From positions 57,536,001 to 57,600,000 of the forward strand of contig NC_043007.1 in the NCBI RefSeq assembly GCF_006345805.1: a stretch of DNA of 64,000 nt. Direction: 5' to 3'. How positions within the stretch are numbered: the stretch's first letter is position 1; every line of letters begins with the position of its first letter. The DNA is from Octopus sinensis. Lineage: Eukaryota. Both the position numbers and the translations under genes were made by a program. The notes under the pieces are model-generated. The model searched no databases. It had not been told where the DNA came from and was given only the letters and a program-made list of their open reading frames with translations. Positions 1,872-62,799 of this stretch are shown piece after piece.

Positions 1872-2080
1872 AGCTGGCAGAATCGTTAGCACACCGAGAA
1901 AAATGCTTAGCAGCATTTCGTCCGTTTTCACGTTCTGAGTTCAAATGCCACTGCGGTCGACTTTGTCTTTCATCTCTTCGAGGCAGATTAAATTAATACC
2001 AGTTGAACACTAGAGTTGATGTAATCGACTTATCCCCTCCCGCAAATTTGTTAGCCTTGTGCCAAAATTTGAAACCAATA
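1872..2080 (+). mobile_element. SINE family A copy
   Basis: gctggcagaatcgttagcacacc...ttctgagttcaaat...ccaaaatttgaaac, colinear with 707-913. Confidence 0.85.
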
Positions 2081-2888
2081 TTAACCCCGGGTGAAGCCTG
2101 ACGAAAAATTTCAGCCAAGATTTTCCATCAATAATCATCCGATATTTCATTTATACATATCGTATTTAATATTGCATTATGCAGAGTTGTCTTTTCCAGA
2201 AAGATTTAGCTGCTATTTCTGACTTGTTGAGCAATCTATTCTCCCATTACAACCACTGTTATTTTTAGTAGTCTAAGCTGTTGATGCATCAACTGCTACA
2301 GTTTCTCTCTTCTTTTCGCTAAAACAAAACATTGTAGTTTCTGCACTTACTGTAGTTTTCTGTTTCTGCAGATATGAAAACATTGGCAGTTATTGTAACT
2401 GCTGATCTTATCATAACGAGTATATACACAATTTTTGATCTGGGTGTAGTAACAGTAGCACATACTGATCATGTGGTTTCTGTTACATTCTCTCTAACTA
2501 ATGCAGCTATTTCTGCTGTGGGAGGTGCAGCTGGAGAAGGCATTTCTTGTTTAGTATACTTTTACTTCTCCTGTTAACTGCACTACAAGTGCTTCTATAC
2601 TTTTGAGCTGTTAGGTACACATATGTCACTTTCTTGATTGTAGTTTGCTGACAATTTAGTTCCTGAAGCTATGGTTGCCGTGATTACTATAACTTAATGT
2701 TGTTTCTGCGTCCTCCTTTCCACTTAACTTGCCAAAGGCTAACTCAGATATAACACTCTTTGGACATAGTTACTTTAACACCCTTCACATGACGAGATAT
2801 GATGATGCAGTGAATTGAAAGCCAGAACAGATTCTTTAGTATATTCACATGGCCATCAGTTCAACCCAGTTATATAAGACGTCCAGAT

Positions 2889-3024
2889 TATCCAATTTCA
2901 TATCCACGTATCTTCATTCTTAAACACATACATACCCACACATAGATACATACGGATATCCAATTTCATATACACGTATCTTCATTCTTTAACACATGCA
3001 TACCCACACATAGATACATACGGA
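2889..3024. repeat. Tandem duplication, 68-bp unit x2
   Basis: tatccaatttcata...catagatacatacgga starts at 2889 and again at 2957, with about 3 mismatches. Confidence 0.9.
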
Positions 3025-3149
3025 CAGATAGATAGATTGGTATATATGTACATGCATATTTCTGCGAAGTGCAAACACAAAAGATCTCATATAGTTATTT
3101 GGGTAAGAAAAGAAGAGTCATGTCATAGAGGTCAGCCGCTCCGCAGATG

Positions 3150-3480
3150 TGAATATTTCCTTCTCAAATCAGAGGATGGAGAATATTTATGGACAACTAC
3201 TTTGAATTCCTCAACTACTTTGATTATAAACTCCACTTTATACCAATAATTATTGGTGCATATGGCTCTGTCAATAAATGTTAAAGAGAAAATCAGGAAC
3301 AAACAGTGTTGTCAGGCAAAGAAAGTTACCGTCGATGACGCACTTTGCAGATTGAATCTAAGGTGAAACGTAAAAATATGTCCAGCTTTTCTAAAGTTCA
3401 ACAGATCACATCAGTATTGTTATCCAAATTCCAGTGGTAGAGCTTTGTTTCCTTGATAAAAACCAACTTCTTTGTTGAGG
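3150..3480 (+). pseudogene. Possible highly decayed Penelope-type RT fragment
   Basis: Broken frames give LIINSTLYQ...GAYGS (cf. YQQxxGxAMGSP), VDDALC (cf. YVDD) and FLD, in the expected order. Many stops and frameshifts. Confidence 0.35.
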
Positions 3481-4266
3481 GAAGAATTTAAATAGTCAAA
3501 AGGAGAAAATAACATACATGCATCATGATACCATCTACAATATGTACATCTCTGATCATGAGCAGGAGTAGAGGGGTTCTTTGGGGGTCTGAATTAATGT
3601 AACAAAAGCAAAGTTTGAAGGAAATATTAGCTATTTTTCATATTTTCTACGGGTAAGCAAATACAAAATAACAGTTGCAATCCAAGGACAGTGGGTAGCA
3701 AGTCACACGGTGTTATGAGGTGCTAAATGTTTTGTTAAATTTCTGCGAACTGGTCACTCATAAAGTTTCAGATGTTATAGAATTGTCTGTGACCAGGTCA
3801 GACATTTTAGAGATATTTTGTTATTAGAAATCAAGGAAAGTGACTGTAACAGTTTTTCTCATACATGAAGAGAATATAGCTGTCTTTGTTGCTGATTGGC
3901 TAAAGTAACTTCTTTCCCGTTGTACTAGTCTCCGTATCAAAGTATGCATCAAGTCTCCTACTAAACTAGTTCAAGTCTGAGATAAGAAATGTGAGAAAAA
4001 GAAAACATCTATAGCAAACTAATGAGAAATTGTAGATACTACCGCCGGAGACCAAGACATTTGATTGTTATCTTATATTATTGGAACATGATATGTAAAT
4101 GTTCAACGATAAATCTTTAGGAGATGGTCTTCATACCTCAAAATGGAAATACATATTTAGGGAATTAGATTAACAAAACAATAATGAAGGCAATGGTATA
4201 TAAAGTAAAATTTTGTAAACAGTCTGACTAAACGGGCTTTCACAATACAAACACATCCGCAAAGAC

Positions 4267-4303
<37 letters not shown>

Positions 4304-4304
4304 T

Positions 4305-4494
4305 GTAGGTCCCGGGTTGAGTCGGGGTTAACCACAGTAAATAAGGTACTCAATACATAGCAGAGTAAATTAATTTATTTTATAGAAGGAGCTTCTACAG
4401 GACTAGAACAAATGAAATCATCAGGAAGCTTCCTGATGATTTCATTTGAATGAAACAGTTCTAGTCCTGTAGAAGCTCCTTCTATAAAATAAAT
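4305..4494. mobile_element. Fold-back Penelope-type remnant in (TA)n with hammerhead-like core
   Basis: Palindrome 4373-4494 centred on ggaag|cttcc. The right arm has CTGATGA (4433) ...GAAAC (4452); the left arm lacks 10 nt of it. One-sided extension at 4305-4372; (TA)n on both sides. Confidence 0.7.
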
Positions 4495-5175: not shown

Positions 5176-6909
5176 ATTCTTAACATTTTCCTAGTTACCT
5201 TTTCTCGTATTTTTTCTCAGTTTTCCTTAGGGAGAATCCATATTGTTTTAAGCAAGAATAATAGGAGGGTAAGTACGCTATACGTTACTATACTTTCCAA
5301 ACGTGAAACATCAAGTAGCTCTTGTATAATACCAGCATTCCCTAAATGATATTTATTTCTCATTCAGTGCTTTTTGATGATCCTATCAACAAGCTAACAG
5401 TACACGACACACACATACACACACACGCGTACACACACAAAAAAGACACACATATATGTATCTACATCTATCTGCCCATAAGTGTGTGTGTGTATGTATG
5501 TGAGCGAGTGTTTGGGCGTGCGTGCCTGTGTGTGTGTGTGTGTGTTTGTGTTTGTGTGTGTGTGTGTTTGTGTGTGTGCGTGTGTGTGCAAGGAGCAATT
5601 TTTGCGTAGATAAGACTGTTCACCACAGCCTCAATTATAAAATGTCACCGTATTACTACAAAAGTTCAAAATATTGTGATTCTATACAACTGCAGTTACT
5701 TGAAAGTGATAGGGTGACGCAATAATAATTATTCAACAAGGAACCTTATTAAATTATATGCAACAGGATAAATTCAGCTTTGCTTGTTAATGAGTGACAC
5801 CCCTAAGTGAACAACTCTTTCGGTCAGTGGATGGTCGTGAAACCGACAAATTTCTTTAGCTGAAACTTTCATTTTTGTCAGATCGATTTGCTCTTGGCGC
5901 TCTAAATAGGGAGAAAGCTCTTGTCAGTGGTACATTTCTCAGCACTATGCACAATTGTATTTAAAACATACTTAGGAAAATGGATATGTATTAGTATTTT
6001 TTCGGTATGGTCACTTTTAGGCTCTACGCTATTGTGTTTTCCATTAAACTGTATCCGCCATTTTAGATCATTAGATAAGTATCATTATGAATGATTACTT
6101 ATAGCTTCCATCGTCAATAATTCTCTCAAATAAACGGAAACATTTCATTTTCGTCTTTTTTACCACTATTTATACATCTGCAGTTACTTAATATTTTCTG
6201 TTTACAGAGCATTGTTATCTTAACGGGCTCTGAACTTTTCCAATTGGAGTTCTTCACGCAGTGTTATTTCCTCAGCTTCCTTCATTCTTCTCCTTTCAAC
6301 CAGCAATCGATATTGTAGCTGCTCTCGTTAAAACTCCTGCTTACATCACTTTGAATATATTTCACTGGCGACAACACACTGGACTAAAAGCACTAATTCA
6401 ATTTTCTTTTATTCTCCATTCTATAAACATTCACGACGTTATCTTTTACATTATCAAACCAACAAAACCAGAGACGACTCTACAACACGCCAGCCACATC
6501 ACTGCTATATTATCCACATAAAGTTAACTGACCAACACAGACTACGTACCTGAGATTCTTCCACACAGTTATTTCCTACTATTGAACTTAGGTTTGATGT
6601 TAGTTACAACACCTAAGACATGTAATGTATTAAGCTAAAATGGCAACAAATTGCTTTTATCTTTAACCGACCATCACCATTCTGTATCATGACACATATC
6701 CTTTCATTTGACATTATTAAATCTGGAACGGAATCAACGCAACATGATTCATTCCATCGATAGCGAACCAATATTTCAAGATGGCTGTCATTCAACTTAA
6801 ACACAGCAATGCTTTATTGTAGATGTGTGTGTTTGCGCAGATGCATTTGGTGGATATAGAGAAAGAAAGCACATTGAAATATGTCTTGGTTATGTATGTG
6901 TGTGTGTGC

Positions 6910-23163: not shown

Positions 23164-25150
23164 TAGTTTTATTTTTATAACGTGCTTTCACTTCACTACC
23201 GAGCACATCTCTGTGTGCCTTGGGTATGTGTTGTGATTTGTTGTGATGCTCTGATGGTTATTGTATGGAAAGTGTTCTGCGTAGGATGTGTGCAGTGCCT
23301 AGTAGTGCAATTTTCTGTATGTTATATGTGTTTGTAAGTCCTGGTGTTTTTGTTATGTATTTGTCTGAATATTTTTTATCATGCCTAATGCACCTACTAT
23401 GATAGGAATTGTTTCTGTTTTTAGATTCCACATTCTAGTTACCTCTATTTCCAGGTCTTTGTATTTTGAGAGTTTCTCCATTTCTTTTAGAGACACGTTG
23501 TCATCTGCCGGTATTGATACATCAATTAGAAAGCATTTTTTTCTTCATGATCTCTGACAACTATATCTGGTCTGTTGGCCTTAATTTCTCTATCTGTGTG
23601 TATCGGCATATCCCAGAGTATGGTTGCTTTCTCGTTTTCTGTGACCTTTTCTGGTGTGTGCCTATACCATCTTTTTTCTGTGTATGTAGGTTCCGACTCT
23701 GTCATGTCTGTGAATATATTCCTTCTTAGCCAGGACTGGGCAGCCAGAGATAATATGATTTATTGATTCTTGTCCATCTCCACAAATTCTGCAGTTACTT
23801 GTTATATTTCTTTTCATTATATGTTTTTGGTAATTTCTGGTGGGGAGGCTTTGGTCTCGTGCTGCAATTAAAAATCCCTCTGTCTCTGCTTTGAGTCCTG
23901 AGCTTCTCAACCATTGCTGGAATTTTTCTTTGTCTATTTCTTTTGCATTAAGTTTAGTCCAGTATTTACCATGAAGGGGCTTTTCTTGCCATCGTTTTAT
24001 CGTGGTTCTTTGCTGTTTTAGTTTTAGTTTGGATTTCATTTGTTTTATAGCTTTTGTTGTTTCTCCATCTTCTTCTTCTTCTTCTTCTTCTTCTTCTTCT
24101 TCTTCTTCTTCTTCTTCTTCTTCTTCTTCTCTTCTTCTTCTTCTCTCTTCTATTCTTCTTCTTCTTCTTCTTCTTCTTCTTCTTCTTCTTCTTTCTTCGT
24201 CTTCTTCTTCTTCTTCTTCTTCTTCTTCTTCATCTTCTTCTTCTTTTTCATATTTGTTAGGTGGTATGATTTCTTGTTTGTATTTGTCAGCTTCCTTAAA
24301 TACTGAGAACAGTTTGTAGTTTTGCTCGTGTTTTGCCGCTATTTGTATCAGTTTTCCTTCCTTCTGAAGTAGATTTTTTTGCAGTCCTATGGTGGTTATT
24401 TTATAGTAGTTTTCCTAGCTGTATAGGCCTCTACCACCTTCTATACGTTGTATATATAGTCTTTCTATGTCAGATTTTAGGTGATGCATCCTAGATCCTG
24501 TCATTTCTTTCTTTTTCGTTTTCCTATCTATTTTGGTCAGTTCATTTAGTGCCCAGTTAAGGATATTGTAGCTGTAACTTATAACTGGGACAGCTAAAGT
24601 GTTAATACCTATTATCTTGTTTTTAGCATTGAGCTCTGTGTTTAGTATTGATCTAACTCGTCTATAATATTCTTTTTTTATTTTCTCTTTCATTTGTGTG
24701 TGTTGTGTCTTATTTAGGTCATGGATTCCTAAGTATTTGTAAGTTTGGCTTTGGTCTAATTCTTTTATTTCATTGGTTTTATCTAGTGTGATGTTGCTAC
24801 TCTTAACGAGTTTTCCTCTTTTCAGGGTTACTTTGGCGCATTTTTCTAATCCAAATTTCATATCTATTTCTTTGGTAAATCCATGAACTGTCTTTAGTAG
24901 TGTTTCCAGCTGTTTGTCATTTGCAGCGTATAGTTTTAGGTTATCCATATATAAAAGGTGGCTGATCGTTTTGCCGTAACATTTATATCCGCATCCAGTT
25001 CTATTTAGCATATCAGATAAAGGTGACAGTGTCAAGCAGAAAAGGAGTGGAGAGAGCGTGTCTCCCTGGAATATTCCTCTTCTAATGGGGATGGCTTTGG
25101 TTTTCATGAGTCCCTCTTTTGCTTGGAGCTGTAGTACTGTTTGTAGCACT
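23161..25150 (-). mobile_element. 5'-truncated R4/Dong-clade non-LTR retrotransposon (RT, CCHC, RLE), frameshifted
   Basis: RRGIFQGDTLSPLLF, HLLYMD(N)LKLYA, GGRGL, CRICGDGQESINHIISGC, RHD and ANRPDIVV. ORF ends LGTAHILRRTLS. (TTA)n on both sides, consistent with the known TAA-repeat targeting of Dong elements. Confidence 0.92.
24060..24245. repeat. (TTC)n expansion inside LINE ORF
   Basis: ~185 bp of TTC here, versus ~25 bp at the homologous site 33358-33385. Confidence 0.95.
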
Positions 25151-32448: not shown

Positions 32449-34310
32449 CAGTAGTTTTATTTTTATAGCGTGCTTTCACTTCACTACCGAGCGCAGCTCT
32501 GTGTGCCTTGGGTATGTGCTGTGATTTGTTGTGATGCTCTGATGGTTATTGTATGGAAAGTGTTCTGCGTAGGATGTGTGCAGTGCCTAGTAGTGCAATT
32601 TTCTGTATGTTATATGTGTTTGTAAGTCCTGGTGTTTTTGTTATGTATTTGTCTGAATATTTTTTATCATGCCTAATGCACCTACTATGATAGGAATTGT
32701 TTCTGTTTTTAGATTCCACATTCTAGTTACCTCTATTTCCAGGTCTTTGTATTTTGAGAGTTTCTCCATTTCTTTTAGAGACACGTTGTCATCTGCCGGT
32801 ATTGATACATCAATTAGAAAGCATTTTTTTCTTCATGATCTCTGACAACTATATCTGGTCTGTTGGCCTTAATTTCTCTATCTGTGTGTATCGGCATATC
32901 CCAGAGTATGGTTGCTTTCTCGTTTTCTGTGACCTTTTCTGGTGTGTGCCTATACCATCTTTTTTCTTTGTTATTCCATAATGTTGGCATAGCTTCCAAT
33001 GTATGTAGGTTCCAACTCTGTCATGTCTGTGAATATATTCCTTCTTAGCCAGGACTGGGCAGCTAGAGATAATATGATTTATTGTTTCTTCTCCATCTCC
33101 ACATATTCTGCAGTTACTTGTAATATTTCTTTTCATTACATGTTTTTGGTAATTTCTGGTGGGGAGGCTTTGGTCTTGTGCTGCAATTAAAAATCCCTCT
33201 GCCTCTGCTTTGAGTCCTGAGCTTCTCAACCATTGCTGGGATTTTTCTTTGTCTATTTCTTTTGCGTTTAGTTTAGTCCAGTATTTACCATGAAGGGGCT
33301 TATCTTGCCATCGTTCTATTTTTAGTTTGGATTTCATTTGTTTTATAGCTTTTGTTGTTTCTTCATCTTCATCTTCTTCTTCTTAATATTTATTAGGTGG
33401 TATGATTTCTTGTTTTGTATTTGTCAGCTTCCTTAAATACTGAGAACAGTTTTTTGTTTTGCTCGTGTTTTGCCGCTATTTGTATCAGTTTTCCTTCCTT
33501 CTGAAGTAGATATTTTTGCAGTCCTATGGTGGTTATTTTATAGTAGTTTTCAAGCTGTATAAAGCCTCTACCACCTTCTATACGTTGTATATATAGTCTT
33601 TCTATGTCAGATTTTGGGTGATGCATCCTAGATCCTGTCATTATTTTCTTGTTTTCCTATCTATTTTGGTCAGTTCATTTCGTGTCCAGTTAAGGATATT
33701 GTAGCTGTAACTTATAACTGGGACAGCTAAAGTGTTAGTACCTATTATCTTGTTTTTAGCATTGAGCTCTGTTTTTAGTATTGATCTAACTCGTCTATAA
33801 TATTCTTTTTATTTTCTCTTTCATTTGTGTGTGTTGTGTCTTATCTAGTTCATGGATTCCTAAGTATTTGTAAGTTGGGCTTTGGTCTAATTCTTTTATT
33901 TCATTGGTTTTATCTAGTGTGATGTTGCTACTCTTAACTAGTTTTCCTCTTTTCATGGTTACTTTGGCGCATTTTTCTAATCCAAATTTCATATCTATTT
34001 CTTTGGTAAATCCATGAACTGTCTTTAATAGTGTTTCCAGCTGTTTGTCATTTGCAGCGTATAGTTTTAGGTCATCCATATATAAAAGGTGGCTGATCGT
34101 TTTGCCGTAACATTTATATCCGCATCCAGTTCTATTTAGTATATCAGATAGAGGTGACAGTGTCAAGCAGAAAAGGAGTGGAGAGAGCGTTTCTCCCTAG
34201 AATATTCCTCTTCTAATGGGGATGTCTTTTGTTTGGAGGTGTAGGACTGTTTGCCATTTATTCATAGAGTGCTCTATGAATTTTATGATTGTTGGTGCTA
34301 CTTTGTTAAT
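32449..34310 (-). mobile_element. 5'-truncated R4/Dong-clade LINE, second copy, frameshifted
   Basis: HLLYMDDLKLYA, CRICGDGEETINHIISSC, RHDRVG and ILWDMPIHTDREIKANRPDIVV. Closely similar to 23161-25150. Confidence 0.92.
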
Positions 34311-36335: not shown

Positions 36336-36729
36336 TAATTCTTTCAAATTTAATTTGGAAAGGAAGATGAGGGTGGAAGAGAGAAGTGCTGCCTCCCAGT
36401 ACATTTTCTAAAAGGTGGATGAACGAAGCAAAAATGGTACGTGTAAGTGAATCTACTCTTATAATGCGCCTGTAGGCTAGTGTATTTGAGAAGGTTGTTC
36501 TTCCCAGAAACCCTCGAAGCGTCGAGTGATTCAGGATTGGTGGGGTACCTGAGCCAACTCCAGGTGGTTACCTTCCACCCCTATTGGGGAACTTTCATTA
36601 TTATATTCTTTTGTTACACGATTGTGTAATCGTTGTTTCTGTGTAAAATCCCCACTGCCCATGTCTAATGTATCGTCCCTATATGTCGGCCCTAGTGAAA
36701 TAATAATGATGACGATGATGATGATGATG

Positions 36730-36802
<73 letters not shown>

Positions 36803-36821
36803 TGATGATGATAATAATAAT

Positions 36822-37065
36822 AGTATCTTTAGTATCCTAGTTGTCTTTAATAACTTTGTTCTCTGGAGCTGTGCTAAACTGGGTTTTATGCCCATTTCCT
36901 CTATCCATCTGTAGAGATATTTAGGGATAGTTCCCAATGCACCTATACTTACTGGGATACATTTTACCCCCATTTTCCATAGCCTCTGTAATTCAATGGC
37001 CAGGTCCTGGTACTTTGCTATTCTTTCTATACCTCTCATATTAATTTTTTCATCATTTGGGACCT
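36822..37065 (-). pseudogene. RLE-LINE C-terminal fragment (third subfamily)
   Basis: KYQDLAIELQRLWK...CIPVSIGALGTIPK...LQRTKLLKTTRIL, ending at the (AAT)/(GAT) tract. Confidence 0.8.
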
Positions 37066-37260
37066 CTTTAGCTTTTGAGTTTCTGTGTATATTTATCCCT
37101 TCCCCGAAAGATGAACAATTACCTCCCCTTTCCCCAATAATAACGATCACCAATTACCTCCCCTTAGATTTTTCTACTTGTTTAATCATTAATTCATGAA
37201 CTCCGCACATAAAATGAACTAAAATCTTCTTAAGTAAATACGAAATTATAATAATTTCAA

Positions 37261-38562: not shown

Positions 38563-39104
38563 TACACACATACATACCTACTCGCACTCACACACACTCG
38601 TCTATAGATATAATCATGCAGTAGCTTTGGCGTTCCCCTCTTCACTGTTATCACTCATCGTCCCTGTTCAACTGTTTTCTTATTCTGTTCATATTTATGT
38701 CTTCAAAGAATTTTACATGCTTTCTTCCATTACTTTCCCGCTTTCTTTCACTCGTTCTACCCTCCGCTGTTTCTCTATCATTTTATGTTCAAGACTCTTT
38801 TCTTCTTTTCTTCTTACTTGCCTTCTCTCTCTCACTAGCTCCTAGACCCTTTCCCTCTCATTTTCTCTCGGTCTCACTCACTTTCGACATATATATATAT
38901 ATATATATATATATACTACAAAATTAGAGAATGGAGAAATATACTTAAATCAGTAAAACATCAACTATCCGATGATACTCAATCCATACTTAATACACCA
39001 TTACATATGAGTAAAGGCAATACATAAAATGAAATGAGATATACAGTAATAGTAAAAAGATAAAGAGATATAAGTAAAAATTTTCAAATATAATTGCAAA
39101 TAAA

Positions 39105-39222
39105 TCAAAACTGACAGCTGTTTCGGCAGTGAGGACAGTCATACCTCATTTAACCTATAAGCCATAAGGCAGGTATAAATGAGGCATTAACAAGGATGCC
39201 CCACGGCCTCTTCAGAGAATTA
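39105..39222 (-). ncRNA. Hammerhead ribozyme motif (type I, long stem II), left arm
   Basis: Minus strand CTGAAGA (39215-39209), ~85-nt stem II, then GAA-ACAGCTGT-C. Predicted cut 3' of 39113. Confidence 0.8.
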
Positions 39223-39569
39223 AATTAAATTTGTTATAATAAAGTGAAAAATATTATACAATCATATACATATAAATATAAAAATAAAAAAATGTAAAAT
39301 ATAAAAACTTATACATCATAAAGCTACACTTATATAATATAATACACATTTGTACAAAAAAGGAAGGTAAACAGAACAAAATAAAAAAAATATATAATAG
39401 TGTATATATTAATATCAATAAGTACCGATATTATACATATTTGGCTAATAGTTTTTTTTAAATATATATAAAAAAAAAAAAAAAGGCTAACATATATGGA
39501 GATGAAAAATAATTAAATCCGTGGTACAGTTCATAAGATTCTAAGCTATAAAAGTTAATAAAAATTACT

Positions 39570-39621
<52 letters not shown>

Positions 39622-41312
39622 TATAATAAAAAATAGATACAGTTAAGTTAGCACCAAGTCCATCCTTACAAGATCGAAATAACTATGAGTTAAGAATGCT
39701 GACCACTAGGTAAAGAAAGTATAGATTAATTCGATTGGCTATTGGTTTGAAATTTAAATCACAAAAGAAAATTATACGGTTGGTTAGTCAGGGAACGCCA
39801 ATATTCACACACGCATCTACAGATCAATCGCACATACACACATAGTAATATGTATATGCATACACTTATACACATACATAATTACAAGCAACAACTAGCA
39901 CATAGATAAACAAAGGGAAGCAACTATGCTACAATTTAGTCCTTCAAAATTATAATTGTGCCTCAATAATAAAAGAAGAACCATTCATGCATTCCATAAA
40001 ATATTTAATTTAGATATAAATATATTTTTAAATATCAATTGTTACTAAGTCAGATACTTATTTCATGGGTAACTTAAAATTTAAACACCGGTTTGTTGCA
40101 GAGTAAACATACGGTTGTTAGATTTATCGTAAGTTTGTTATGGTTTTAAGTACGCTAAATTATAAATATAAAATATAAAAATATATTAATTTAAATATTA
40201 TAAATAAGTCACTTATTAACTTAATAAATATAGTGCCATAATAACCATTTAAGGCATTAAAGAATAGAGGGGAAGTATTAATGTAAACGCTTATGAGAGC
40301 ATCACAAAAATTTTTTAAATAAATTTTATATTATAAAGACTTAAGATGAAAAGAGATAATAAATAAGAAGGAATAAATACGGTTATACACATAATAATTA
40401 CAAACCGTATATATGTATTCATATATTATTAAAATTAAATAAAAATAAATGATAGATATGTATGTATAAATAAAACTACCCCAGTATAAGTAAATAAGTA
40501 AAAAATAAATAGGTAGCAAATTAGATGACTTGATATGTATGTAAACATCTACACTTAAATAGGCAATAAATAAATAAATAGAAGACTAGATGCAAAAATT
40601 GATAATATTACAATAAAATGGAAATAATAAAAATAATAAATAGAGTGAATATATATGTTATATTGTTGAAAGTAAATATGTATGGAAGGATAGTTTAAAG
40701 TACAGATCCAGAAGACTATAGATATAAACTAAATATATGAGGCTGGTAATAATTATAAAGCATAATGCATGTAAATGAGAAAATGAAAAAAATGAAAAAG
40801 GTTTATCAGTGAATAGCATAAGATACAAATTAAGGTGAGTACAAAAAGACCAAATATACAATAAAAACCTTCCAAATAAACACATACAAAAAACCTATAA
40901 TCTCAACCTAAACCCACCAAACTCACAAAAGGCTCTCATATATTACATATTATACAATATCATTACATTATCCAGAGCTAGGTATCTACCCAAGATATAT
41001 ATATATACTATGCAATATACTATGCAATATTGGAAAACTTCAAAAATCACACATTACAAGGCAAGTACCAAAATGAATATGTTATTTTATGTCATATTGC
41101 ATTTCTCTTAAAAAAAACAAACAAAAACCCACATACAAAAAACAAGAAACCAATAATACTAGACACATCCATTAATTATTATACAAATGTAGCTATAAAA
41201 ATTATAAAATTATAAAATATATAAATTGTATACTTTAGAATTATAGAAGACCACAGGTATATTTAGTTAAAGAAGGGAGTTAAAAAATTAATAATAGTGG
41301 AAGTGCTAAGTT

Positions 41313-42533
41313 CTATTTGAATCTAGAAAAGGTGAACGGTAGCCTATGAATACAAAAGAAGTTTTTTTCATTAATGTTGTTAATAATTTGCCGACCCGCT
41401 TTAATAATGAAGAAAATTTCATTAATACATAGAGAGCATTTTTTATTTTTTCCATTATACACAGGTGCTGAAGTTAGTATTTTCCAGTTTAATCTAAAAT
41501 CTAAGTTCTTATTTTTAAGCTCCCAAATGTATGCACTTAGCCCTGTAGAGTACATTCTATTTTTATTCCTAAAAGTATATCTGTGATAATTCCATCTTTG
41601 TTTTATGCTATTCATAGTTGCCCCGATATACACCCTACTACTCAATTGTGTATCTACAGTGCATTGGTAAACTACCTCCTTCCGGAGGCATTGATTACCA
41701 AATACACATTTATTTTTATTTCTGAAATTACAAAGATTAACAGAATGAGGAAATCTAAAATTGGACAACACCCCTATACTACTATTCACATTATAAGTGT
41801 TACAATTGTTATCATCATCCAAACCCAAAATCAACGAATGAGTTAATTTCACATTATCGGCTATATTCCTATCACTAGTACTAGTATTGGTATTAGTAGT
41901 ATGATCTATTTCATTTATATTATCTCTGACAGGTATGGTGCACTCATTATTAGTAAGGAGGTTGTTCCCATTTGTTCCAAGAAAGTTTCTATTCCTATTA
42001 TTAATGAAGAGGGGCAAGTTTACCTGGTCTAAATTCAATTTTCTATCCTTATAGAAGTGATCCAGTTTCTTGTTATTAAAAGAGGAGATAATGGTGGCTA
42101 GATTATGAGTAATGCTATATCCCACTCTAACAGTACCGTTGTTAATTAAAGGACTAAATTTATTCTTATCCTTACCAAAATGCCTAAAAATAACATTATG
42201 CAAAGCTCTCACTATGTTTGTTTTAATCTGCATTGCATATGGGATAATCAACCAAAGAGTATCCTTATCAGAATTAGGATTGCCTATAGAATTAATGTTA
42301 TTTGTAAAAATCCTATTCGTAGACCAACTCATAGGATTACTATTCTTACCATTGTCATTGTTATATTTATCTATATCAATATTACCATGGTTATTGCGCA
42401 AGTAAACTTTACCATTATCATGTCTACCATAAGTTTTAATTCGTATATTATTATTAATATTCCTACTATAACCCGTATGTTTAGATCTATTTGAGCTACC
42501 GTTCACCTTTCCAAGGTTAACATCACTTCTACA
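41313..42533 (-). CDS. PLE ORF C-terminal part: Asn-rich linker plus GIY-YIG endonuclease
   Basis: CNFRNKNKCVFGNQCL...VVYQC...VYIGAT...KQRWNYH...STGLSAYIWELK...CSLCINE...CIH is a Naiad-type GIY-YIG with Cys/His motifs. The frame is open from ~42533 and out of frame with the RT by one base. Confidence 0.88.
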   Translation of the reverse strand, partial: CRSDVNLGKVNGSSNRSKHTGYSRNINNNIRIKTYGRHDNGKVYLRNNHGNIDIDKYNNDNGKNSNPMSWSTNRIFTNNINSIGNPNSDKDTLWLIIPYAMQIKTNIVRALHNVIFRHFGKDKNKFSPLINNGTVRVGYSITHNLATIISSFNNKKLDHFYKDRKLNLDQVNLPLFINNRNRNFLGTNGNNLLTNNECTIPVRDNINEIDHTTNTNTSTSDRNIADNVKLTHSLILGLDDDNNCNTYNVNSSIGVLSNFRFPHSVNLCNFRNKNKCVFGNQCLRKEVVYQCTVDTQLSSRVYIGATMNSIKQRWNYHRYTFRNKNRMYSTGLSAYIWELKNKNLDFRLNWKILTSAPVYNGKNKKCSLCINEIFFIIKAGRQIINNINEKNFFCIHRLPFTFSRFK

Positions 42534-44153
42534 TTATTATAGGTGTTATCATATATTCCATTTTTACAATTCTTATGTATATTGTTGATTATCCTAAATC
42601 TATTTGTGTTGTTCCTGATAGTTCTACCTCCATTAGGGGGGTTCCCCTTAGGTATAAACCAAATCTTACTTTTATATCCTGCCTTAAGCAATGCTGCATT
42701 GTATCTATCACAGTGTTTGTTAAAAATTTCCTCGTTTGAGGATAAACTAGAAATTCTCTGACTAATGCTCCTCACTAGTGCATTTTTAATTTGAGGGGGG
42801 TGATTACTTGAACGGTTAATGTATATTAGGTTAGAATTAGGTTTAATATAGGGTTCATGTAAACCATTAGTAATATTACAATTAACATCTAAATAATTAG
42901 CAGAATAATTTTCACTTTCAATGATAATGGATAGGCCGAAGCTTTTAAAAAATTTATTTATTCTTTTTTTCAGAAGATCTAATCTCCTATTTGATGTATT
43001 CCTAACACAAAATAAGGCGTCATCCCTGTATAATCCACCTTTTAATTCAGGGAATTCCCTACTAAAGTTATCTAATAGATACATCCCAACTAGATCAGTC
43101 ACCTCCGCTGAGTCCGGCGATCCCATTGTGATATCGAACAAGTTGGGTGTGTCCTTTCTAGCCCAAAGTTTATTATCAAACTCTATTAAAGTTTTCCTGG
43201 CTGTTAGTATAACCTTAATCTCCCCCATACTTAATTTAGTGTGTTTTCTAGCAAAAATTAAGGACTTATTTAATATAATAGGGTTAATGGAAGTGTAATA
43301 ATTCTGTATATCGAATTGTATAAATTTATTTCTATTATAGCTAAAGTTGTTACTGTCACAGACCTTAATGGCAGAAAACCAATCCAAAGCACCCTGAGTA
43401 TTCTTCCAAAGGTTTAGTTTGATTTTATTGCGGATGGTGGGTAGGTATTTATCCAGAATGAGTTTACTTAGTCTGCCTAAGTCAGATTTAGTGGGGCAAA
43501 TTAATCTGACCTGTGTGTTTCCAAGAAAATTCTCTTTATGATCCTTTAGTGTAATTCTCGGTCTAGATGGGGTGTAGGGTTCTGTTTTTTCTTCTAGGTA
43601 GTAGTCAAATATGATTTCTCTGATCTCCAGGTTCAGTTTTCTAAGTGTACTAGAAGGTACTACTTTGTATTTCTTGGTTATTTCCTTGTGTAGAAGATCA
43701 TGATATGCAGTAATGTCAATGTTGTAGATGTTGTTGGTTTTGTCAGAATGTGTTAGAATGCCGCTCTTACCTTTGAGAGTTCTAATTAAGTCTTTCAATT
43801 CTCTTTGGTGCTGGTTATATCTTAAAGGATGATTTCTAAATTTTATGTTTTTTACAGTCTCCCATAGTTCTTGTTCAAAATTGTCTAGATGTATATTTGG
43901 TGGAGGAGACTTCCTAGATTTAAATGTAGTGCCTGTTAGTTTTAATATTTCTTCATAGGTGCTTCCAATTCTATTACGGATCGTTTCCTCAGTGTGTTGT
44001 TGTTTATTTTATTATTATAGTTCTCATGGTGGAAATCCTCCATCTGATCCTGTGGATGAATTCATTCATTCTATAAATTAGTTCTTTAGTGTAATGGTCT
44101 TTGGTAGGGATAGGTACATCCTTCATTGATGAATTGATCAGTATTTTCTCCAT
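42503..44153 (-). CDS. PLE ORF N-terminal part and reverse transcriptase (frameshift near 44010-44035)
   Basis: ATG at 44153 gives MEKILINSSMKDVPIP...FIHRIRWR. The main frame is open from ~44008: FKSRKSPP...NIKFR...SDKTNNIY...TLKDHKENF...RLICP...QFDIQNYYTSI...FDITMGSPDSAEVTDLVG...GLYRDDAL...NYLDV...SNHPP. Confidence 0.92.
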
Positions 44154-44460
44154 TCTTCTAGCAGTAATGATCAAAGGAACAAATATACTATACTAGGGTG
44201 TATTCACATGCACTATTAATTTTTAAGTCAATAAATGGATGCTTATATTACACCAGTATGAGCAATTCAGGTTCTTCAAAAGAAAATTTAGGTTATAAAT
44301 GAGATAGGGGTTGAAAGTTCAACCCACCATGGGATAATATATATCCAATATACTGCTAGATAGGTACCCAACAAAATTAATACATAGATGTAAAAATTGT
44401 CAAACAATCAGTTCATCTATTGCATTATATGGGTAAGGTAATAATATTACCGTAAATTAA

Positions 44461-44710
44461 TACTACAAAATTAGAGAATGGAGAAATATACTTAAATCAG
44501 TAAAACATCAACTATCCGATGATACTCAATCCATACTTTAATACACCATTACATATGAGTAAAGGCAATACATAAAATGAAATGAGATATACAGTAATAG
44601 TAAAAAGATAAGAGATATAAGTAAAAAATTTTCAAATATAATATGCAAATAAATCAAAACTGACAGCTGTTTCGGCAGTGAGGACAGTCATACCTCATTT
44701 AACCTATAAG
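44461..44710 (-). repeat. Internal 5' pseudo-LTR (direct repeat of 38914-39160) with only the 3' half of the hammerhead
   Basis: tactacaaaattagagaatgg...aacctataag; ends at the tip of the stem II hairpin. Confidence 0.9.
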
Positions 44711-46229
44711 TTAAAACCTGTGGGTTTTTGTTTGTATTTTAAGAGAATTGCAATATGACATAAAATAACATATTCATTTTGGTACTTGCCTTGTAATGTG
44801 TGATTTTTGAAGTTTTCCAATATTGCATAGTATATTGCATAGTATATATATATATCTTGGGTAGATACCTAGCTCTGGATAATGTAATGATATTGTATAA
44901 TATGTAATATATGAGAGCCTTTTGTGAGTTTGGTGGGTTTAGGTTGAGATTATAGGTTTTTTTGTATGTGTTTATGGTCTTTTTGTACTCACCTTAATTT
45001 GTATCTTATGCTATTCACTGATAAACCTTTTTCATTTTTTTCATTTTCTCATTTACATGCATTATGCTTTATAATTATTACCAGCCTCATATATTTAGTT
45101 TATATCTATAGTCTTCTGGATCTGTACTTTAAACTATCCTTCCATACATATTTACTTTCAACAATATAACATATATATTCACTCTACTTATTATTTTTAT
45201 TTTTTTATTTATTTTCCATTTTATTGTAATATTATCAATTTTTGCATCTAGTCTTCTATTTATTTATTTATTTGCCTATTTAAGTGTAGATGTTTACATA
45301 CATATCAAGTCATCTAATTTGCTACCTATTTATTTTTTACTTATTTACTTATACTGGGGTAGTTTTATACATACATATCTATCATTTATTTTTATTTAAT
45401 TTTTAATAATATATGAATACATATATACTGGTTTGTACTTATAATTATGTGTATAACCGTATTTATTCCTTCTTATTTATTTTATCTCTTTTCATCTTAA
45501 GTCTTTATAATATAAAATTTATTTTTATTTAAAAATTTTTGTGATGCTCTCATAAGCGTTTACATTAATACTTCCCCTTCTATTCTTTAATGCCTTAACT
45601 GGTATATTATGGCACTATATTTATTAAGTTAATAAGTGACTTATTTATAATATTTAAATTAATATATATTTTATATTTATATTTTATAATTTAGCGTACT
45701 TAAAACCATAACAAACTTACGATAAATCTAACAACCGTATGTTTACTCTGCAACAAACCGTGTTATAAATTTTAAGTTACCCATGAATAAGTATCTGACT
45801 TAGTAACATATTGATATTTAAAAATATATTTATATCTAAATTAAATATTTTATGGAATGCATGAATGGTTCTTCTTTTATTATTGAGGCACAATATAATT
45901 TTGAAGGACTAAATTGTAGCATAGTTGCTTCCCTTTTTGTTTATCTATGTGCTAGTTGTTGCTTGTAATTATGTATGTGTATAAGTGTATGCATATACAT
46001 ATTACTATGTGTGTATGTGCGATTGATCTGTAGATGCGTGTGTGAATATTGGCGTTCCCTGACTAACCAACCGTATAATTTTCTTTTGTGATTTAAATTT
46101 CAAACCAATAGCCAATCGAATTAATCTATACTTTCTTTACCTAGTGGTCAGCATTTCTTAACTCATAGTTATTTCGATCTTGTAAGGATGGACTTGGTGC
46201 TAACTTAACTGTATCTATTTTTTATTATA

Positions 46230-46273
<44 letters not shown>

Positions 46274-46624
46274 TATTATTATAGTAATTTTTATTAACTT
46301 TTATAGCTTTAGAATCTTATGAACTGTACCACGGATTTAATTATTATTTTTCATCTCCATATATGTTAGCCTTTTTTTTTTATATATATTTAAAAAAAAC
46401 TATTAGCCAAATATGTATAATATCGGTATTTATTGATATTAATATATACACTATTATATATTTTGTTTTATTTTGTTCTGTTTACCTTCCTTTTTTGTAC
46501 AAATGTGTATTATTATTATATAAGTGTAGCTTTATGATGTATAAGTTTTTATATTTTACATTTTTATATTTTTATATTTATATGTATATGATTGTATAAT
46601 ATTTTTCACTATTATAACAAATTT

Positions 46625-46752
46625 AATTTAATTCTCTGAAGAGGCCGTGGGGCATCCTTGTTAATGCCTCATTTATACCTGCCTTTATGGCTTATAGGTT
46701 AAATGAGGTATGACTGTCCTCACTGCCGAAACAGCTGTCAGTTTTGATTTAT
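46625..46752 (+). ncRNA. Hammerhead ribozyme motif (type I, long stem II), right arm
   Basis: CTGAAGA at 46636-46642. ggccgtggggca pairs with tgtcctcactgcc and tgcctcattta with taaatgaggta. GAAA at 46728-46731, palindrome ACAGCTGT, cut after C46739. Confidence 0.8.
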
Positions 46753-47142
46753 TTGCATATTATATTTGAAAATTTTTTACTTATATCTCTTTATCTTTTT
46801 ACTATTACTGTATATCTCATTTCATTTTATGTATTGCCTTTACTCATATGTAATGGTGTATTAAAGTATGGATTGAGTATCATCGGATAGTTGATGTTTT
46901 ACTGATTTAAGTATATTTCTCCATTCTCTAATTTTGTAGTATTAATTTACGGTAATATTATTACCTTACCCATATAATGCAATAGATGAACTGATTGTTT
47001 GACATTTTAACATCTATGTATTAATTTTGTTGGGTACCTATCTAGCAGTATATTGGATATATATTATCCCATGGTGGGTTGAACTTTCAACCCCTATCTC
47101 ATTTTAATACCTATATATATATATATTATATATATATGTATA

Positions 47143-62196: not shown

Positions 62197-62204
62197 GTGT
62201 CCTT

Positions 62205-62778
62205 TACTCTCAGTTGACTAAATGCTTCGGAAACACAGATTAGCTCTGGTCTTATTAAGCTGTAAGATTCGAAGCAGATATTAAGATCTTTGTAAAACTA
62301 AGACCGATTAAATCGATTATTTCTCTAGAAAGTAAAAAGATTGTAATAGTTGTATTCAAACCAAATGTAGAGTATAGTTGTTTTTTTCATTTTGGAGTCA
62401 ACAATTAAATCCTATTTGTCTAAGGAGTGTTTTGTTTTCTTTGTCTAAGCTCTTTCGGCACACATCCTGTGACCTCTTTAACAACACTTTATAAAGTGTC
62501 GCTGAAGAGGTCGCAAGATGTACGTCGAAAGAGCTTAGACAAAGAAAACAAAACACTCCTTAGACAAATAGGATTTAATTGTTGACTCCAAAATGAAAAA
62601 AACAACTATACTCTACATTTGGTTTGAATACAACTATTACAATCTTTTTACTTTCTAGAGAAATAATCGATTTAATCGGTCTTAGTTTTACAAAGATCTT
62701 AATATCTGCTTCGAATCTTACAGCTTAATAAGACCAGAGCTAATCTGTGTTTCCGAAGCATTTAGTCAACTGAGAGTA
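62205..62778. mobile_element. 574-bp spacerless palindrome, Penelope-type, with hammerhead-like motif near the centre
   Basis: Centre at 62491|62492 (acacttta|taaagtgt). The outer ~253 bp of each arm is perfectly complementary. CTGAAGAG (62502)...CGAAAGAGCTTA (62526-62537). Confidence 0.85.
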
Positions 62779-62799
62779 CAAGACTTTCCTCTGAACACC

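Follow-up and report, generated by a model that had tools for sequence, protein, structure and literature searches.

Insertions of Penelope-like retroelements with inverted arms and a tail at one end have been described previously (PMC8557442, Fig. 2 legend; PMC3846280; PMC8969392), and the origin of both the arms and the tail is stated as open in one of these accounts (PMC8557442). In vitro, the protein of PAc, the Poseidon element of Anolis carolinensis, which is predicted to form a dimer, supports cutting and extension of both strands, with two internal RNA start sites bounding the tail; the sections of this 2024 study covered here describe the two start sites but draw no connection between them and the paired ends of an insertion (PMC11167929). 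Here we analyzed a 64,000-nt stretch of Octopus sinensis DNA (NC_043007.1, positions 57,536,001 to 57,600,000; hereafter the window) from a 2.7-Gb, microsatellite-rich animal assembly. The window carries a recent insertion made up of two head-to-head copies of one Penelope-like element, whose family pairs two different fixed ends in a way that suggests how such arms may arise.

Self-alignment of the locus (features in Table 1) bore out every structural claim of an earlier interpretation made from the letters alone (the sequence-only reading), namely an 8-kb fold-back in (TA)n with both 3' ends facing outward into TA repeats, a minus-strand open reading frame (ORF) with a reverse transcriptase (RT) and a GIY-YIG nuclease, an AT-rich 3' untranslated region (UTR) of about 2.4 kb that is indeed unusually long, a 5' pseudo-long terminal repeat (pLTR) of about 250 bp, and a right arm some 170 bp longer that copies the 5' leader. 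On the minus strand the main copy reads pLTR, tail, ORF, 3' UTR and pLTR, with its 5' truncation falling inside the upstream pLTR, and stops at what we call the short (S) 3' end; the plus-strand arm reaches about 175 nt deeper into the unit and stops at the long (L) 3' end (47104-47112). Self-BLAST aligned the inverted arms (38913-41133 with 46942-44719) at 95.8% over 2266 columns with 9 mismatches and 35 gap openings, the two pLTR copies (38913-39161 and 44460-44710) as a direct repeat of 252 nt at 98.4%, and 44297-44710 with the inverted 47104-46691 over 415 nt at 99.3%, such that the stretch 44460-44297 continues in the right arm, which overshoots the end of the left arm by about 165-175 nt. 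The arms are separated by 3.6 kb of unique sequence, the flanks show no mirroring, and no target-site duplication was found at the locus outside the TA runs. Penelope-like identity likewise holds, given this layout (partial-tandem pLTR, inverted 5'-truncated copy, tail) and the telomerase-RT-like protein model described below.

The arms had been said to differ mainly by 1-bp indels and one 24-bp deletion. Among 44 arm-vs.-arm events we count 23 one-base indels and the 24-bp deletion, which lies in the right arm, along with 9 pure substitutions and further indels of 2-11 nt. The insertion does appear young, as had been proposed from the 1-bp indels; that argument is weak, since such indels resemble long-read consensus errors, and youth is better drawn from the low substitution count and the presence of intact sister copies.

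Two sites account for the ends of copies in this family, S (after ...TTTTGTAGTA) and L, and all 110 L and 114 S ends scored lie within 17 and 13 nt, respectively, inside windows preset at 21 and 18 nt. An exact-pattern search of the assembly returned 133 S and 177 read-through matches. Among the 81 S and 100 read-through matches listed (using the region covered by both lists, with 19 S rows dropped), all 32 of 32 outward-facing pairs were mixed S+L (P = 2e-10 vs. one half), while 3 clusters were same-strand and 110 matches were unpaired. We also resolved ends across 129 regions after duplicate removal, pooling 30 clusters and, for either kind of unpaired match, the first 25 with other loci, and classed them with length filters because of noise from TA-rich matches. 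Every one of the 88 resolved fold-backs was S+L, with zero S+S and zero L+L; 30 of these came from 50 matches first counted as unpaired, and the set overlaps with most of the 32 exact-match pairs. Dropping two local duplicates leaves 86 independent fold-backs; the S end is the left one in 46 of them and the right one in 40. A sister family (~51% RT identity) gave 715 S and 996 read-through matches, and 47/47 outward pairs were mixed among the 77 S and 100 read-through matches listed (23 S rows beyond the shared range dropped); 20 of its unpaired matches yielded 11 S+L fold-backs (11/11 resolved), 8 single ends and 1 unresolved. Strand-independent choice of site would give at most 50% mixed pairs.

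Some loci are more elaborate. L021-L022 and L025-L026 contain more than one inversion and more than 1.3 tandem units, still with one S and one L outer end, and at L038-L039, L111 and L141 whole fold-backs occur as adjacent repeats whose centres are identical or nearly so, as either local duplications or assembly duplicates.

Comparison of arms across the 57 loci whose arms overlap by 150 nt or more demonstrates, at the level of sequence variants, that both arms of a locus stem from one template lineage. The arms of one locus differ by a median of 0.25% substitutions vs. 1.8% between loci, have 625 minor-variant sites in common against 83 that differ, and stay within 1.3% of each other even at loci that diverge from the reference by 12-15%; the own partner is the nearest arm or tied for nearest in 43/57 loci, and strictly nearest in 30. 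The 5' points of the arms (centres) coincide within 15 nt in 27 of the 86 fold-backs (permutation mean 2.5, maximum 11 in 20000) and are offset by more than 15 nt in 59, with the S arm reaching further in 23 and the L arm in 36. In 6 of the 86 the L arm lies wholly inside the tail and has nothing in common with the S arm. As arms can be non-overlapping, and longer on either side, each appears to be its own first strand. The 86 junctions comprise 43 microhomology overlaps, 11 blunt joints and 32 with inserted bases. The 5' ends look commoner in hammerhead stem II, where a single 40-nt bin has 14 of the 97 arms at risk, and around reference positions 5200-5240 (11/42); since neighboring bins vary and locus selection was uneven, we do not claim these as hotspots.

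We propose, at a probability of roughly 0.6, that the two unequal arms are made by twin priming on one RNA. The GIY-YIG nuclease would cut both strands of a (TA)n tract, and the RT would extend each free 3'-OH, one from the short site and the other from the long site of the same transcript, with the two starts probably made by two subunits. Both cDNAs would run toward the RNA 5' end, with the one behind displacing the one ahead wherever they overlap, and would stop early or at the same obstacle; their ends would then join via microhomology or a few added bases, each templating the second strand of the other, to give head-to-head arms with both 3' ends outward. Coinciding centres would indicate that both RTs halted at one obstacle or at the RNA end, with offset or non-overlapping arms otherwise, and single-armed copies would result from loss or trimming of one cDNA. 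The chemistry that such a route requires has been demonstrated in vitro for another clade, with the PAc protein (PMC11167929). Since the unit has both start sites upstream of its ATG, the template must carry a pLTR and tail after the ORF, which could come from tandem read-through or from a circular RNA. A circular template has been proposed (PMC4209133), and with it a tail downstream of the ORF would be available as well. The window copy is itself probably a poor source of two-armed insertions, because its 3' end is S and it has an incomplete hammerhead upstream (the upstream pLTR begins inside stem II and so lacks the first half of the ribozyme core); the intact copies on C4 and C26 have the whole upstream hammerhead and end at L.

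Several observations weigh against twin priming on one RNA. The anole study found no difference in start site between strands (PMC11167929), the 27 palindromic centres also fit self-priming, and the evidence at these loci is genome sequence, with all pairing counts drawn from one assembly. There are 37 single-ended clusters (23 S, 14 L) and 11 unresolved ones, and a search of the flanks of single-ended copies brought up one exception, L168, in which the partner of the L arm is 23 nt long and stops 25 nt inside the tail, an intermediate end showing that S is not absolute. The own partner is not the nearest arm in 14/57 loci, and similarity of arms could also be explained by two RNAs of a single donor, by gene conversion, or by polishing of the assembly. 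For the broader proposition that twin priming is obligate in Penelope-like elements, with two RT subunits engaging two fixed sites on one RNA, we see even odds; inverted arms, tail and palindromic centres would then all follow from the twin-priming step, under a rule displayed in thousands of insertions of an enlarged, active Hydra lineage of this genome, with tails of 120-175 nt.

The strict pairing would equally be predicted if two RNA molecules, one per target strand, sat in a complex whose asymmetry or order obliged one RT to start at S and the other at L. Such a complex would dispense with strand displacement where arms overlap by kilobases, as in the window, and two RNAs from one donor should also give near-identical arms. 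We nevertheless regard it as unlikely, as it needs something further to break the symmetry of a (TA)n target and accounts less simply for the 27/86 coinciding centres, and as no arms of clearly different subfamilies occurred in the 57 loci compared. The near-perfect palindromes at those same centres bring in self-priming, proposed for rotifer Penelope elements (PMC3846280, Discussion), whereby a strand folds back at a short palindrome and copies itself (from an antisense template), with unequal ends arising on resolution. While self-priming may add to the palindromic class, we judge it an improbable general account given the 59 offset centres, the 6 loci without arm overlap and the 23 with a longer S arm, since the latter two groups mean that neither the S nor the L arm is in every case copied from its partner.

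Marginally less probable again is that only L is an RT start and that S marks a nuclease cut in a double-stranded intermediate of the element, followed by joining to the target. The S site is AT-rich and target-like, and nuclease-mediated resolution has been suggested for the tail (PMC8557442), but the 23 single-armed S insertions require synthesis from S, as do S arms that extend beyond the L arm or do not overlap it, and both tail boundaries are RT starts in the anole element in vitro (PMC11167929). Finally, although the locus is known here from the assembly alone and carries an excess of 1-bp deletions, an artefact of collapsed or chimeric long reads is very improbable given its unmirrored flanks, the unique sequence between the arms, and ends at the two sites fixed for the family, which 85 further loci with other centres have too, since chimeric reads would not select element-specific ends.

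The sequence-only reading assigned the element to the Naiad group, pointing to GLYRDD, SxKxxPIP...RxRW and CxLC..E..CxH motifs. These motifs are present, as GLYRDD, SMKDVPIP...RIRW and CSLC..E...CIH; the clade call drawn from them does not hold. Naiad elements are defined by a nuclease at the N-terminus together with DKA, CxC, CCHH and an IFD, and by lacking a hammerhead, and Hydra elements by a C-terminal nuclease without CCHH, DKT, RWK, a CxCX5C linker, CxxC plus CxH, a hammerhead and (TA)n targets (PMC8557442). By these traits the element is not a Naiad, as the nuclease follows the RT (GLYRDD at about residue 373, YIG at about 843), the RT motif is SDKTN rather than DKA, CCHH is missing, and a hammerhead core sits in the pLTR. 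The CxxC/CxH end, taken as Naiad-like, is labeled potentially Hydra-specific in Fig. S7 of PMC8557442. By its motifs and layout the element instead matches an enlarged Hydra-clade Penelope-like retrotransposon, having the features of the Hydra list and failing the Naiad one.

Regarding individual features, the segment between GIY and YIG, where the CCHH motif has two Cys, is VVYQCTVDTQLSSRVYIG with one Cys; in this genome's DKG families CxxC occupies that place. The Hydra linker CxC...C-x5-C is present as CNCRNKNKCVFGNQC in the intact copies, which also have the CSLC..E...CIH end, and the N-terminal RWK motif appears as RIRWR, with a variant last residue. No IFD lies between RT3 and RT4, where spacing is like that of homologs and, by eye, within one residue of Hydra-1_Obim. 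The (TA)n target is likewise evident, with 188/223 ends running into TA under a strict 10-nt rule. Among 79 homologs, DKT is found in 56, the CxxC...CxH end in 67 and GLYRDD in 64. In the window the second Cys of the linker is Phe (41725), as it also is in L042, L045, L049 and L054; the two intact copies have Cys, and the variant seems to have spread among copies.

In both quick and careful trees of 53 rows (40 homologs of at least 680 aa, 2 named homologs, 6 sister copies, 3 DKG proteins and 2 of our own), the family nests among unnamed DKT-type homologs with the six sister copies, far from the three DKG proteins, which are Neptune-type by motif. With no named Hydra or Naiad protein among its rows, the tree supports the Hydra assignment without proving it. 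A search of the genome with a motif of a published octopus Naiad gave one match, without a long RT frame.

The ORF encodes 947 aa where unbroken, as in 2/31 regions scanned (the window and 30 others), on C26 and C4. In the window it is broken by three 1-bp deletions relative to the intact copies, near 44035, 44002 and 42535, and it differs from the C4 copy by 6 substitutions, compared with 14 substitutions and 35 + 10 gap runs over 5.8 kb. The excess of short-run deletions looks like long-read consensus error, so the ORF of the window copy may be intact in the animal. An AlphaFold model of the 947-aa protein (pLDDT 72.6) had telomerase RTs as its top 8 Foldseek and top 12 VIA matches (best match Z 15.7, rmsd 4.0, 354 aligned), the RT carries DKT and GLYRDD, and the GIY-YIG domain shows VVY...YIG with R, H, E and N aligned to homologs. 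Residues 505-630 and 711-805 are disordered inserts with 22-25% Asn that are missing from most homologs; the nearest named homolog is from Argonauta hians. A Pfam scan found no RT or GIY-YIG match for the window frames, the intact ORF or five homologs, and a PDB sequence search gave one chance match only (E=1). Prediction of a dimer from two copies of residues 1-495 gave no verdict either way (score 0.00). A search of sequencing runs found the ORF in 20/24 rows from 8 studies, all as contigs, with no RNA data set carrying it among the rows listed.

Both 3' ends carry a hammerhead motif that the sequence-only reading overlooked. Found by pattern and fold, this putative ribozyme has a palindromic stem III and a rod-like stem II of about 85 nt, and its fold scores z=-4.05, with 0/200 shuffles as good. 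The core in the pLTR is kept in the 150 arms scanned, family copies being too alike for covariation, and an Rfam scan returned 18 weak matches, none a hammerhead. The cleavage site is crossed by 97/140 arms, so the template there must have been uncleaved or re-ligated. Cleavage is not needed for the PAc element in vitro (PMC11167929), with which this passage of arms beyond the site would be in line.

Related families with 48-55% RT identity are present in the genome too, and open frames span 800-1100 codons in many of them. Ten related-family loci have Asn-rich inserts; hammerhead stem II is longer in most of the ten, and the tails that could be resolved measure about 120-160 nt. L201-L220 represent a radiation of large Hydra-type families with long open frames, among which L213 and L215 have lost the Cys linker motif and kept the CxxC/CxH end. 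A Neptune-type family (DKG, 781 codons), present in several copies of identical length, has a separate 479-codon upstream ORF that overlaps the RT ORF (L253:674-2110 and 2032-4374) and a UTR with repeated TGACGTC and ATTGG boxes.

Table 1. Positions of the fold-back components and of other features in the window
Feature	Position	Strand	Remarks
(TA)n target, left flank	38889..38915	.	
Main copy	38913..44710	-	1.04 units; ends at S, 38913
3' UTR	38913..41312	-	2.4 kb, AT-rich; pLTR at its end
Putative type I hammerhead motif	39113..39215	-	CUGAAGA...GAAAC AGCU GUC; pattern and fold
ORF	41313..44153	-	single ORF, ATG 44153, stop 41313; N-terminal region, telomerase-like RT, two Asn-rich inserts, Cys linker, C-terminal GIY-YIG
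Tail	44297..44459	-	start of 5' leader, between S and L sites; forms small hairpins
Upstream pLTR	44460..44710	-	252 nt; starts within hammerhead stem II
Head-to-head junction	44711..44718	.	8-nt spacer
Inverted 5'-truncated arm	44719..47112	+	most of 3' UTR, pLTR with hammerhead, tail
Putative hammerhead motif in inverted arm	46636-46739	+	
(TA)n target, right flank	47112..47141	.	
Lone hammerhead-like core	4433		CTGATGA...GAAAC; pattern search
Broken non-LTR retrotransposon frames	23665-25149, 32852-34196, 36695-37153	-	RT motifs GDTLSP and YMDD, CxxC/HI zinc knuckle, nuclease-like C-terminus
Second fold-back	62199-62784		293-nt arms, 97% complementary, no spacer

Elsewhere in the window, the second fold-back is unrelated to the first; it adjoins a (TAT)n run, has a hammerhead-like core (CTGAAGA...GAAA) near its centre, and is likely a pLTR-only remnant of another Penelope-like family. 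The lone hammerhead-like core may be due to chance or be another remnant. A Pfam scan of the third non-LTR piece gave no match.

Compared with described Hydra elements such as Hydra-1_Obim, the octopus family has in common the RT-then-GIY-YIG order, DKT, the RW motif, absence of CCHH, the linker, CxxC/CxH, a hammerhead and (TA)n targets, and its N-terminal 400 aa are similar to Hydra-1_Obim motif by motif in a by-eye comparison; its hammerhead sequence differs from that of Hydra-1_Obim, which makes it a different family. Hydra elements are generally under 3 kb, a descriptive rather than defining trait, and the 27 families listed span 1.1-3.0 kb (PMC8557442), whereas the unit here is 5570 bp. 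Further differences from described Hydra are the 2.4-kb 3' UTR, a hammerhead stem II plus loop of about 85 nt vs. roughly 12-24 nt in the listed motifs, a tail of about 175 nt vs. 30-40 nt in described elements, and the presence of intact young copies. At 947 aa, the ORF is longer than in any of 40 full-length homologs (median 707, maximum 803), the excess being the two Asn-rich inserts. What the family has in common with the Naiad clade is a Penelope-like RT, pLTRs, an inverted 5' copy, a tail and a preference for (TA)n.

In LINE-1 twin priming, both target strands prime on one RNA and the inversion is joined by microhomology, with the second primer at variable internal sites and segments without overlap. 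Here, by contrast, both starts are fixed and the arms usually overlap. The Penelope families of the rotifer Adineta vaga resemble ours in their inverted pLTRs, one-sided tail, palindromic junctions, Asn-rich in-frame inserts and long spacers before the 3' pLTR (PMC3846280), but they belong to another clade, have few copies, and come with a self-priming explanation that fits only about a third of the centres here. PAc has two fixed internal starts bounding the tail, cutting and extension of both strands and an AT-rich target in common with the octopus family, and differs in a tail of 30-40 nt with starts inside the ORF, as opposed to about 175 nt with starts in a non-coding leader; no count of site pairing within an insertion is reported in the sections of that study covered here (PMC11167929). 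In the literature searched, with subscription papers (for example those by Evgen'ev and Arkhipova in 2005 and by Arkhipova in 2006) and the supplementary figures of PMC11167929 outside its scope, we found no earlier S/L pairing count or Penelope twin-priming model. The near-absolute S+L rule in two families, together with the non-overlapping arms, which self-priming cannot produce, narrows an open mechanism to a few models, and the long tail makes the two start sites easy to tell apart. The family also widens the Hydra clade with a member twice the described size, intact and recently active, and, as it was missed by the Pfam and Rfam libraries used, Hydra-type elements of this kind are likely under-annotated. 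Set against these known systems, the octopus element is ordinary in overall plan, an enlarged Hydra-clade family whose many copies expose a strict end rule.

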